Positions 15,906 through 20,760 of a stretch of DNA of 64,000 bases are shown piece by piece. Made by a program: the position numbers and the translations under genes. The stretch's first letter is position 1, and each line of letters opens with the position of its first letter. This DNA comes from Patescibacteria group bacterium (lineage in GTDB: Bacteria; Patescibacteriota; Minisyncoccia; Phycocordibacterales; GCA-2747955), in contig JBLYPV010000001.1 in assembly GCA_048538215.1 (NCBI GenBank), positions 547,526 through 611,525 on the forward strand, given 5' to 3'. The notes beneath the pieces were generated by a model, which did no database searches, was not told the origin of the DNA, and was given only the letters and a program-made list of their open reading frames with translations.

Positions 15906-18737
15906 ATGAATGAATCACCTAGCATTGAACGCAATAATAAGCCAACAAATGATCTCGATCGTATTGCCAAGCGAGTGAATGAGACTATGGAATCGGTGTA
16001 CAAGAATACCCCTCTTCAGGAAGTTCCACAGGGGGCTCAGGAGGAGATGGTCAAGCGGGCGGTAGACGAGCATATAGAAGAACGGCTTGCAAAAAAGCCA
16101 CTAGGCAATCCTTTTGGGAGCAAATATGAGCGCACAAAAAATACTCAAAGATTACAAGAGCTCGGCCTCAAGCTAAGCCCTGACGAAGATGATGCATACA
16201 TTCAAGAATTGTTAGAAATGGTGCAAGAGATCGGCATCGTGGCTACCATCAAAGCAATTGATGAGAGTACTAATTATCATATTAAAGATGACTTGCATCG
16301 AGCACTGGTGGCTTATCTGCATACAGGGCGTACTTTTGAGGATTTTTCGAAGAAAAATCCTCTTCATCGAGGTCTTTCAATGACCCTTTTCGAGCTGGCA
16401 CTACCGATAGGATCAGAGGAAGAACGCAAGACAGAATTAAAGCAATTATTATCTTCAATGGAGCAGTTTTACGCAGGGATGCGTGGAGTATTAGAGGCAC
16501 ACAAGCACGCCCACTATCTTTCTATCGAAGTAGCTTTGGCACAAAAGCGTGAAGAGGTGGTAATTTATGCCGCTGTGCCCAACGAGGCAATCCATGTATT
16601 TCGTAATCAGCTTTTGGCTATTTTCCCCGACATTCGCCTTACTGAAGCTACTGATGACTATAATATTTTTAATAAAAAAGAGGCCATTGCCGTGTCGGTA
16701 CTCAAGCAGGTAAACTCACCACTTTTGCCCATTAAGACCTATCAAGATTTTGACTATGATCCTCTTAATATTTTACTTGAGGCTTTTGCCCATCTTGATT
16801 ACGAAGAAGGGGCTGCGGTGCAAATTATCTTTGGGTCTGGCGGGGTAGATATTACCGAGGAGGCGCAGAGTGCTATCGAAGCTCTCGAAGCTGGGGAGGA
16901 TCCTGCACGAGCGCTAAAGTTTGGCTCATCTCTATTATGGAAGGGCTTGAAGCAGGGCTTTGGAGACATATTCAAAAGTACTAATATTGAAAAACAAGAA
17001 AAAGAAGAAGCCAAACGAAAAGAGCGGGCGGGGCAATCTGATAGGCGGGAGCTTGTAGAGCTCGTGCAAAAAAAGCGTAATAGTCGATCCTATGCTTGTA
17101 ATGTGCGCTTGGTTGCAGCAGGCAATAGTGATGCCCAAGCAGAGCGTATCCTTGAGGGATTTGAATCAGTCTTTTATCAGTTTAGCTTGCCCCAGAGCAA
17201 CGAATTTGGCTTTACTAGAATGCATGGTCGTGCGCTTAACCGTAGTGTGCGTGAATTTACCTATAGGATTTTTAACCCCAAGGAAATTGTGTATCTCAAT
17301 ACCGCTGAGCTTTCCACGATTATTCACTTTCATAAAAAGGATGAGGGATCATCCGATATACTCGCAAGCTCGAGTGCCACTACCGCTGGGGCTAGTACCA
17401 AAGCCGCTGCCTCTTCTCGTGGGCAAGAATTTTTGCTCCATAAAGGTAAGGTGCTACTCGGGAATAATATTCACCAAGGATCGAGCACGCCTATTTATTT
17501 GGATGCAGAGGATAGGATGCGACACTTATATGTGATTGGACAGACTGGTACAGGTAAGACTTCGATTATGAAGAATATGATTATTCAAGATATTCATAAT
17601 GGGGAGGGGTGTTGCTTTATCGATCCACACGGATCTGACATTGAAGATATTCTAGGCACGATTCCCCAGCATCGCTGGGACGATGTGATTTACTTTGATC
17701 CGAGTGATACGGATCGCCCCATGGGGTTGAATATGCTGGAATACGATGAATCTCATCCTGAACAAAAATCATTTGTGGTCAATGAGATGTTTGCTATTTT
17801 TGATAAGCTTTTTGATATGAAGGTGGGGGGAGGTGCGATGTTTGAGCAATATTTTCGTAATGCTACTCAGCTTGCAATAGATGATCCTGCTACGGGAAGC
17901 ACTCTACTCGAGATTTCTCGTGTGCTTTCGGATGCTGATTTTCGTCGTCTAAAGCTTGCGCGTACCAACAATGTAATTGTACGCCAATTTTGGGAGCGGA
18001 TTGCGACTCAAGCAGGAGGGGAAGCTTCGCTCGAAAATATCGTGCCCTATATTACTTCAAAATTCGATTCTTTCGTGGGCGATGATATTATGCGCCCAAT
18101 CGTGGCTCAGCAACACTCTTCTTTTAATTTTCGTGAAGCGATGGATAATCGTAAGATTATTCTCGTCAATTTATCAAAAGGGCGCTTGGGGGAGAAAAAT
18201 GCAAATTTGCTTGGCTTGGTAATTGTGGGCAAGATTTTGATGGCGGCTCTCTCGAGAGTAGATGCTCCTAAAGATAAACGACCACCATTTTATTTATATA
18301 TCGATGAATTCCAGAATGTAACGACCGATAGTATTTCTCAGATCCTGTCTGAGGCACGGAAATATGGACTTTCGCTAAATGTCGCCCATCAATATATTAA
18401 ACAACTCGAAGAGGGTATTCGTGATTCTGTCTTTGGTAATGTGGGGAATATGGTGACATTTAGAGTATCGTCGGAAGACGCCGAATTTCTTGCCAAGGTG
18501 CATGAGCCGGTATTTACCGCTCATGATATTGCTAATATCGATAATTATAATGCCTATGTGAAAATGCTTGTTGGGGGCCAGCCACAGCGGTCATTTTCAA
18601 TTGCCACTCTAATACCTGAAGAGGGAGATCCGGCAGTGCGTGATCAGATAAAGGAGCTTTCACGAGAAAAGTATGGCCGGCCACGCCAAGAAGTAGAGGC
18701 AGAAATTATGAGAAAGTACCAAACAATGGGCTCGTAA
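15906..18737 (+). CDS. TraG/TraD/VirD4-like (HerA/FtsK-superfamily, DUF87-type) ATPase with a ~480-aa soluble N-terminal domain
   Basis: Walker A GQTGTGKTS at ~aa 545, Walker B YLYIDEFQ, C-terminal LNVAHQYIKQLEE...GNMVTFRVSSEDAEFLAK resembling the TraD/TraG C-terminal (TraM-recognition) region; no N-terminal TM helices. Confidence 0.5.
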   Translation: MNESPSIERNNKPTNDLDRIAKRVNETMESVYKNTPLQEVPQGAQEEMVKRAVDEHIEERLAKKPLGNPFGSKYERTKNTQRLQELGLKLSPDEDDAYIQELLEMVQEIGIVATIKAIDESTNYHIKDDLHRALVAYLHTGRTFEDFSKKNPLHRGLSMTLFELALPIGSEEERKTELKQLLSSMEQFYAGMRGVLEAHKHAHYLSIEVALAQKREEVVIYAAVPNEAIHVFRNQLLAIFPDIRLTEATDDYNIFNKKEAIAVSVLKQVNSPLLPIKTYQDFDYDPLNILLEAFAHLDYEEGAAVQIIFGSGGVDITEEAQSAIEALEAGEDPARALKFGSSLLWKGLKQGFGDIFKSTNIEKQEKEEAKRKERAGQSDRRELVELVQKKRNSRSYACNVRLVAAGNSDAQAERILEGFESVFYQFSLPQSNEFGFTRMHGRALNRSVREFTYRIFNPKEIVYLNTAELSTIIHFHKKDEGSSDILASSSATTAGASTKAAASSRGQEFLLHKGKVLLGNNIHQGSSTPIYLDAEDRMRHLYVIGQTGTGKTSIMKNMIIQDIHNGEGCCFIDPHGSDIEDILGTIPQHRWDDVIYFDPSDTDRPMGLNMLEYDESHPEQKSFVVNEMFAIFDKLFDMKVGGGAMFEQYFRNATQLAIDDPATGSTLLEISRVLSDADFRRLKLARTNNVIVRQFWERIATQAGGEASLENIVPYITSKFDSFVGDDIMRPIVAQQHSSFNFREAMDNRKIILVNLSKGRLGEKNANLLGLVIVGKILMAALSRVDAPKDKRPPFYLYIDEFQNVTTDSISQILSEARKYGLSLNVAHQYIKQLEEGIRDSVFGNVGNMVTFRVSSEDAEFLAKVHEPVFTAHDIANIDNYNAYVKMLVGGQPQRSFSIATLIPEEGDPAVRDQIKELSREKYGRPRQEVEAEIMRKYQTMGS

Positions 18738-20760: not shown

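Follow-up and report, generated by a model that had tools for sequence, protein, structure and literature searches.

A soluble DUF8128 ATPase with a predicted VirB4-like plan and a coupling-protein-like motor, encoded among the housekeeping genes of a Patescibacteria chromosome

The 64,000-nt stretch of Patescibacteria contig JBLYPV010000001.1 analyzed here (the window; all positions are window positions and + denotes the window strand) encodes at 15906..18737 (+) a soluble P-loop ATPase of 943 amino acids (aa) that belongs to the Pfam family DUF8128 (PF26449). The open reading frame (ORF) is intact and its product is an ordinary member of a family of soluble ATPases of approximately 800-1000 aa. 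This ATPase is probably an orphan, vertically inherited translocase of VirB4 architecture with a housekeeping role, for which DNA is the likeliest substrate. It is firmly supported that its gene stands outside any conjugative element, defence island or conserved three-gene apparatus, and equally firmly that DUF8128 is vertically inherited and near-universal in the class Paceibacteria (Patescibacteria, or Candidate Phyla Radiation (CPR)). An initial annotation of the window had taken the ATPase and the two genes following it for a possible DNA uptake or transfer apparatus or a HerA-type defence module. What it observed is confirmed, while its interpretation is partly supported.

The family assignment is a precomputed Pfam match, the name DUF8128 being given with the locus annotations. 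PF26449 is carried by the identical NCBI protein (P0001, from a Patescibacteria metagenome-assembled genome) and by all of the 120 best of more than 880 homologues. Over its full length, the ATPase is 45-82% identical to hundreds of Paceibacteria proteins, and the named homologue lineages (Paceibacteria/Parcubacteria) include Nomura-, Taylor-, Campbell-, Wolfe-, Yonath-, Zambryski-, Giovannoni-, Adler- and Sungbacteria. At least 597 DUF8128 matches, in Patescibacteria, were confirmed in a collection with one genome per species, and a search of 1.84 billion representatives with a profile of the N-domain retrieved 2,230 clusters (50% identity). In an alignment of 44 sequences, the mean column identity is 59% and about 190 columns are invariant, mostly in the motor, with both Walker motifs conserved. 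Conservation of this kind is typical of a core gene and unlike that of a mobile or defence gene. A literature search for 'DUF8128' found no paper.

The C-terminal RecA-like motor with its inserted all-alpha domain comprises residues 515-943 (17448..18737, +). Walker A (GQTGTGKT, residues 545-552; 17538..17561, +) is invariant from G545 to K551 across the 44 sequences, as are L797, Y798, D800 and E801 of Walker B (YLYIDE, residues 796-801; 18291..18308, +). Between the two motifs, the AlphaFold2 model places the all-alpha insertion at residues 619-745 (17760..18140, +), with predicted helices at 619-636, 638-659, 667-675, 677-686, 690-702, 709-725, 730-733 and 742-747. The ATPase thereby displays the nucleotide-binding domain, the Walker A and B motifs and the inserted all-alpha domain of type IV coupling proteins (T4CPs). 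All its Pfam matches (TrwB_AAD_bind, DUF87, TraG-D_C and T4SS-DNA_transf) fall inside residues 514-860 and are weak; those to TrwB_AAD_bind (31.2 bits versus a cut-off of 20.5), TraG-D_C and T4SS-DNA_transf exceed the Pfam cut-offs. In NCBIfam, TraD-type coupling proteins rank best (TIGR03743, 5.3e-16), but all NCBIfam scores fall far short of the respective cut-offs (among coupling proteins, 58 versus 366 bits for TIGR03743, 43 versus 648 for TIGR03754 and 42 versus 250 for NF045973). The VirB4 model TIGR00929 scores 17 bits (cut-off 643), the HerA models of NCBIfam score 15-17 bits (cut-offs 800-970), and Pfam FtsK_SpoIIIE stays at 18.4 bits, under its cut-off of 24. An hhalign comparison of the ATPase profile with TrwB reaches 92.8% probability in the Walker A region, where GQTGTGKT pairs with GATGTGKS of TrwB; with full profiles, the alignment to the TrwK family is likewise confined to the Walker A region, and TrwB fits slightly better there. 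Judged by its sequence, the motor is a member of the FtsK/HerA-VirB4-T4CP group with TraG/TraD-like features, which bears out both the FtsK-HerA-type Walker A/B ATPase and the TraD/TraG-like C-terminal segment of the initial annotation.

Ahead of the motor, the protein differs from coupling proteins. A Kyte-Doolittle scan with a 19-residue window found no hydrophobic segment in residues 1-760, in line with the earlier description of a soluble N-terminal region of about 480 aa that replaces the membrane anchor. No Pfam model matches the first 510 residues, and a Pfam search with the N-domain returned no match at E-values up to 10. In the full-length AlphaFold model (predicted local distance difference test (pLDDT) of 79.8), an N-terminal helical region is followed by an alpha/beta domain at approximately residues 148-480 and by the RecA-like motor with its helical insertion. 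The N-terminal helical module (residues 1-147; 15906..16346, +) has predicted helices at 13-32, 42-63 and 96-139, and its linker at residues 63-87 is modelled with low confidence. For the alpha/beta N-domain (residues 148-480; 16347..17345, +), a separate model of residues 88-480 (pLDDT 77, predicted template modelling score 0.80) yields a single clear structural match, the VirB4 N-terminal domain. A Foldseek search with the same model gave TrwK chains for all top ten hits (E-values from 4.5e-5 to 3.7e-4, probability 1.00), an agreement that is independent of the other structural comparison. At the level of these models, this domain of about 330 aa would have a VirB4 N-terminal-domain fold.

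The motor is less distinctive in its predicted fold. Structural comparison figures are 27.2 for the C-terminal domain of VirB4 (4ag5), 26.8 for the C-domain of DptH, 26.1 for TrwB and 24.6 for HerA, and lower for DotL (23.3), Cag-beta (21.6) and FtsK (17.8), so that the modelled motor appears about equally close to VirB4, DptH, TrwB and HerA. Because the N-domain has the predicted VirB4 fold and the motor is equally near to all four, the whole plan (an N-domain plus a C-terminal motor) would be VirB4-like, while the motor sequence lies nearest to the coupling-protein models. Such a plan would explain why a soluble N-terminal region replaces the transmembrane helices. Nonetheless, DUF8128 differs from VirB4 (TrwK of R388) in being almost invisible to VirB4 sequence models, in not being encoded with VirB3, VirB6, VirB8 or pilins, and in the extra N-terminal helical module of about 147 aa of its long form. 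Moreover, Patescibacteria carry a separate canonical VirB4, for which a 2025 survey gives 2,417 genomes and a typical position near dnaA and dnaN (PMC12102498). From FtsK/SpoIIIE, the ATPase is set apart by the absence of the four-helix transmembrane anchor and of the alpha/beta/gamma architecture. A role as FtsK replacement or division translocase is excluded, as a complete canonical FtsK is encoded separately in the same window (43916-46312).

Synteny was analyzed by calling ORFs in 82 related loci of other species and comparing them with the window proteins. The map gene lies just upstream of the ATPase gene in 32 of the 68 loci with sufficient flank and ndk just downstream in 38 of 75, with a gap between ATPase gene and ndk of at most 150 bp in 28 of these 38. 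When the neighbours are clustered, position +1 is taken by Ndk in 28 loci and position -1 by Map in 20; Adk occupies -2 or -3 in 16 loci, DUF2238 occupies +2 in 10, and a beta-CASP nuclease is encoded at +3 in 15, each of them on the strand of the ATPase gene. In loci L001 and L002, the gene order L15-SecY-Adk-Map-DUF8128-Ndk is that of the 3' end of the ribosomal spc operon. Altogether, in about half of the sampled species the ATPase gene sits between map and ndk, on the same strand, at the end of the spc operon. The conserved-neighbourhood analysis that had been suggested as a check on the proposed apparatus thus turned out against it, with map and ndk prevailing and the neighbours seen in the window confined to its own lineage. 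Clear orthology to a characterised housekeeping ATPase, with conserved synteny unrelated to DNA transfer, had been named as evidence that would overturn that proposal: the synteny is indeed conserved and unrelated to DNA transfer, but the ATPase is no characterised housekeeping enzyme.

Full-length DUF8128 proteins come in two size classes of approximately 910-1040 aa (the type in the window) and 790-840 aa, next to many entries of 150-700 aa. Identity between short and long forms is about 40%, and the short forms begin at the alpha/beta domain. Directly upstream of the short form, five out of six loci have a soluble ORF of 104-162 aa, whose C-terminal half carries the motif of long-form residues 88-140 in four of these five. 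The family hidden Markov model (HMM) also matches small ORFs 5' of some 'long' genes (e.g., L070 9621-10007, 42.6 bits). Since these small upstream ORFs match the helical module, the module is fused in some lineages and split in others. The surroundings of the short forms include a ComFC-like gene together with a PilM/O/B/T/C operon (L086), an RmuC gene that overlaps the stop codon of the short form (L090), FtsQ-like, glycosyltransferase and DnaX genes (L088 and L099) and a transposase (L101). In locus L100, a secreted protein of 673 aa (9558-11579) directly 3' of the short form contains an internal hydrophobic helix pair with a faint match to T4SS_pilin (PF18895); this may be a pilin domain of VirB2 type that forms part of a large extracellular protein.

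The ATPase could alternatively be a T4CP encoded in trans, which feeds the VirB4/VirB6/VirB8 channel of a chromosomal patescibacterial type IV secretion system (T4SS) encoded elsewhere. The TraD-type match, the three Pfam models over cut-off and the TrwB alignment all place the motor sequence nearest to T4CPs, and patescibacterial T4SS clusters lack a recognisable coupling protein; Wang et al. described an essential T4SS in Southlakia without recognisable coupling and relaxase proteins (PMC10633639). According to the survey by Quinonero-Coronel et al. (2025), 5,713 VirD4-like homologues occur in 2,918 of 3,035 Patescibacteria genomes, or about two per genome, of which only 148 lie near virB4, so that T4CP homologues are mostly far from virB4; exaptation was deemed possible (PMC12102498). 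DUF8128 very probably corresponds to this set, as the numbers and the description fit, although none of six DUF8128 identifiers (protein accessions and locus tags) is present in the supplements of the survey. In favour of a trans-encoded T4CP is also locus L100, where the secreted protein encoded 3' of the short form contains a T4SS_pilin-like pair of helices. On the contrary, the ATPase has no membrane anchor and its predicted N-domain is VirB4-like rather than T4CP-like. Where TrwB, VirD4, TraD, TraG and DotL have an N-terminal transmembrane anchor, DUF8128 carries some 480 soluble residues. Its gene is linked neither to a relaxase nor to a T4SS and belongs to the chromosomal core, not to a mobile element. 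No T4SS gene was found within 10 kb of the ATPase in the loci examined, nor did any neighbouring window protein that was scanned match a relaxase or T4SS family. The same survey reports T4CP homologues in more genomes (2,918) than VirB4 (2,417), a T4CP homologue in Southlakia epibionticum that is non-essential whereas the T4SS is essential, and a near absence of relaxases from the phylum (PMC12102498). Altogether, we regard a trans-encoded T4CP as a possible but doubtful explanation.

A second alternative, a soluble HerA-like DNA translocase or helicase that works in recombinational repair with DNA enzymes such as PcrA or RmuC, is suggested by the PcrA homologue in the window and by the RmuC gene in L090. 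No NurA-like nuclease partner was seen, however, the modelled N-domain matches VirB4 and not the HAS-barrel of HerA, the best HerA model scores 16.7 bits against a cut-off of 970, and adjacency to PcrA or RmuC was found in none of the 82 other loci. More generally, DUF8128 differs from HerA and from the C-terminal ATPase of DptH (DndH) in lacking the HAS-barrel and NurA, Sir2, Dnd or Dpt partners, and its context is one of housekeeping genes rather than a repair operon or defence island. This explanation is improbable.

The closest relatives of the motor outside the family are ATPase-only T4CP-like proteins from IMG/VR (L092-L097), which are 32-34% identical to residues 511-943. With 382-456 aa, they lack the DUF8128 N-domain and, like the ATPase, they have no membrane anchor. 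In locus L095 (4920-6952), an anchor-less ATPase of 424 aa that is 33% identical to the DUF8128 motor is immediately followed by a Replic_Relax gene (6194-6952), with a glucosaminidase nearby. This pair may be a minimal transfer module of a mobile element, and the adjacency to Replic_Relax suggests a genuine mobile-element transfer function for the ATPase-only protein. A Nomurabacteria contig encodes, in addition to its full-length DUF8128 gene and about 4 kb 5' of it, an ATPase-only relative of 496 aa (L020 4603-6093; 33.7% identity), which scores 319 bits with the family HMM and resembles the mobile-element-type relatives.

For the DUF8128 ATPase itself, the explanation as an orphan housekeeping translocase would work as follows. 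To our knowledge, all relatives of the ATPase assemble as rings, and by analogy it would do so as well. VirB4 contacts the membrane proteins VirB3 and VirB8 through its N-terminal domain; in an analogous manner, the N-domain of the ATPase probably docks the ring onto a membrane partner encoded elsewhere. ATP would then drive the movement of a polymer at the cytoplasmic membrane. The substrate would most likely be DNA, although a protein or pilin is also conceivable. DNA is favoured because the superfamily is biased towards DNA or secretion substrates and because the insertion matches TrwB_AAD_bind, described as the DNA-binding domain of coupling proteins. It is further favoured because DNA-related genes are scattered among the neighbours (PcrA in the window, RmuC in L090 and a ComFC-like gene plus a pilus operon in L086) and because ATPase-only outside relatives adjoin a Replic_Relax gene on mobile-element-like contigs. 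Import of DNA would suit nucleotide scavenging or recombination in auxotrophic cells. The function would be a constitutive cellular one and not mobile-element conjugation or defence.

Several observations weigh against this explanation. DUF8128 is an uncharacterised family in every member. The likeness of the N-domain to VirB4 is seen in AlphaFold models alone and escapes sequence methods: hhalign of the N-domain profile gave an E-value of 0.45 against a profile of 24 TrwK-family sequences (proteobacterial VirB4) and a probability of 6.9% against TrwK alone, and a PDB sequence search offered no support for the relationship. A VirB4 HMM built from the TrwK family matched no ORF in any locus, DUF8128 included, a search that is uninformative on divergent patescibacterial VirB4. 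No conserved membrane partner was found for the ATPase. Apart from the T4SS_pilin match in L100, the Pfam lists and neighbour clusters of the loci examined contain no VirB3-, VirB6- or VirB8-like or pilin genes beside it, VirB3-like small membrane proteins not having been specifically modelled. The L100 protein itself would rather favour a pilin or T4SS role. Gene order is weak functional evidence in the very compact CPR genomes, and the DNA-related neighbours are anecdotal and vary by lineage. Finally, if the non-essential T4CP homologue of Southlakia epibionticum is a DUF8128 member, a strictly essential housekeeping role is unlikely (PMC12102498).

In the window, the ATPase gene is flanked by two genes without counterparts at that position outside its lineage. 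Upstream lies a gene for a protein of 355 aa with an N-terminal signal-peptide-like helix (14795..15862, +; hydrophobic residues 1-21). Downstream, a highly charged protein of 644 aa (18826..20760, +) is followed by a PcrA/UvrD-family superfamily 1 helicase of 680 aa (20785..22827, +). The UvrD-family assignment, already made by the initial annotation, is backed by Pfam UvrD-helicase (8.5e-84) and UvrD_C (1.1e-68) and by NCBIfam TIGR01073 pcrA (636.7 bits, 5e-191). The ATPase, 644-aa and helicase genes lie where the initial annotation had put them and are intact ORFs on one strand; they are adjacent, with gaps of 88 and 24 bp. An inverted repeat directly after the PcrA stop codon (22837-22880; 20 out of 20 bp paired, 4-nt loop) is AT-rich, with only four G-C pairs and no clear T-run, and could be a terminator or a protein-binding site.

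The 644-aa protein fits its earlier description as a charged protein with a C-terminal helix: K, R, E and D make up 37.6% of its residues and its single hydrophobic helix spans residues 578-602 (20557-20631); the coiled-coil label is backed by composition alone. It has no Pfam, NCBIfam or PADLOC match, and a database search with it returned only the query itself. Pairwise BLAST against the genes at the same position in L083 (580 aa) and L084 (514 aa) shows weak similarity, confined to the vicinity of the C-terminus (E-values 2e-10 and 0.012, respectively). The protein thus keeps its general build but evolves very fast, while the ATPase stays 54-61% identical, and it is a lineage-specific neighbour rather than a conserved partner. 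The 355-aa protein likewise has no Pfam, NCBIfam or PADLOC match; it is well conserved in the lineage (37% identity to the gene at the same position in L084, E-value 7e-79) and is a lineage-specific upstream neighbour.

These data bear on the proposal of a dedicated DNA uptake or transfer apparatus of unusual composition, made up of the ATPase, the UvrD helicase and, as a coiled-coil membrane protein, the 644-aa product. The tight same-strand arrangement agrees with it, the gene order is kept in relatives down to 54% ATPase identity, and the 644-aa protein could tether the anchor-less ATPase to the membrane. Yet a homologue of the 644-aa protein, the 355-aa protein or PcrA stands beside the ATPase in none of the 82 loci of other species, by which the pairing is largely refuted. 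The order YraN-MiaA-(secreted protein of 343-358 aa)-DUF8128-(charged protein of 514-644 aa)-PcrA-KsgA recurs only in relatives whose ATPase is 61% and 54% identical, and KsgA follows PcrA also in L083 and L084. The arrangement in the window is a stretch of a longer collinear block of housekeeping genes found in its own lineage only, and the presence of YraN, MiaA and KsgA in this block argues for general collinearity. The 644-aa protein, moreover, diverges almost beyond recognition where the ATPase does not.

Each of the two genes also has a promoter-like site of its own, which speaks against a joint apparatus. Both sites, at 15872..15900 (+) before the ATPase and at 18790..18819 (+) before the 644-aa gene, match the consensus in 10 of 12 positions. 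Their -10-like boxes, TATGAT (within 15895-15906) and TATAAT (within 18814-18828), end 5 and 6 nt 5' of the respective ATG, and no Shine-Dalgarno sequence is visible between box and ATG for either gene. Across the region, 16 promoter-like sites were found versus 23 expected, i.e., no enrichment over chance. These consensus matches hint at separate, perhaps leaderless transcripts. In sum, a dedicated three-gene apparatus is a distinctly remote prospect.

Type IV pilus genes elsewhere in the window had been drawn into the same proposal. The only such genes, at 51166-54583, are one for a prepilin peptidase and three or four that encode pseudopilin-like proteins; no PilB, PilT or PilC was seen, and the genes lie about 30 kb from the ATPase locus with no link to it. 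Just 5' of them, at 50445-51089 (+), a protein with an IS200-like Y1 transposase domain is encoded.

The other reading offered at the outset, a defence module, was considered as an anti-phage ATPase of HerA, DptH or MADS type. In the PADLOC scan, mad8 is the only MADS component that the ATPase locus matches (1.8e-19). The other mad genes of a MADS island (the methyltransferase and the remainder) were not found, as the three flanking genes scanned have no MADS match; nor is a Dnd, Sir2 or nuclease partner adjacent. GajB matches of the helicase reflect generic UvrD-family similarity, the same protein scoring far into the PcrA family. A literature search for mad8/MADS found unrelated papers only. 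As the ATPase is a single, highly conserved gene of some 600 or more species in a housekeeping operon context, with unremarkable local GC content, a defence role is extremely unlikely.

The window as a whole is ordinary chromosome. Pfam matches around the locus are YraN, MiaA, PcrA and, 3' of the helicase, KsgA; farther along are ClpP, a XerC-like integrase, S6, SSB, EF-P, RecA, the complete FtsK, LigA, GatA and the start of the S10 ribosomal operon. A prophage, integrative and conjugative element or defence-island context is unlikely in view of the uniform composition and the housekeeping neighbours. At the left end (1-8142), a cluster of methyltransferase, glycosyltransferase and polysaccharide-flippase genes with a GC content of 0.25-0.37, compared to approximately 0.44 elsewhere, has the appearance of a variable island for surface glycans. 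For a series of large ORFs at 24858-32850 (299, 325, 713, 815 and 329 aa), one TSP3 repeat is the sole family match; the TSP3-repeat, ~325-aa and ~712-aa genes keep their position in L083 and L084, the remaining ORFs lying beyond the flanks compared, and the products of the whole series may be lineage-specific surface proteins. A tyrosine recombinase of XerC/D or phage-integrase type is encoded at 37122-38057 (-). At 40205-40969, directly 5' of SSB, a 254-aa ORF fuses S6 to a C-terminal helix-hairpin-helix domain (HHH_5), an unusual architecture for S6.

Much of bacterial diversity belongs to the Patescibacteria, which rely on host cells for nucleotides, lipids and amino acids, and the movement of macromolecules in these organisms is a central open question. 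DUF8128 is widespread and catalogued, and apart from lineage-specific neighbours the present locus adds nothing unusual. For genome annotation, 'conjugative DNA transfer family protein', as NCBI names it, misleads here and does not in itself point to a mobile element. An essential patescibacterial T4SS has no recognised coupling protein, and the 2025 survey left thousands of 'T4CP homologues' unexplained; in the text consulted, the N-terminal domain, the VirB4-like fold and the map-ndk position are not described (PMC12102498). According to the predicted models, DUF8128 would be a distinct variant of the T4SS ATPases, with a VirB4-like N-domain, a T4CP-like motor, no anchor and a usual position in a ribosomal operon. 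If these proteins are VirB4-architecture ATPases encoded in a ribosomal-protein operon, they would constitute a distinct, vertically inherited machine and not leftovers of conjugation, and would offer a candidate link between VirB4 and VirD4 for the evolution of T4SSs and a specific, testable candidate motor for CPR biology. The family merits experimental work. A further-reaching and tentative possibility is that DUF8128 forms a third, previously unrecognised branch of the VirB4/VirD4 clade, which would resemble an evolutionary intermediate in joining a VirB4-type docking N-domain to a coupling-protein-like motor. Fixed in the core genome of Paceibacteria and tied there to the ribosomal operon, it would power a constitutive membrane translocation step needed by these auxotrophic episymbionts. 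Its role may then be the import of DNA for nucleotide scavenging, or it may serve the essential T4SS of Patescibacteria as the coupling ATPase not yet recognised there.

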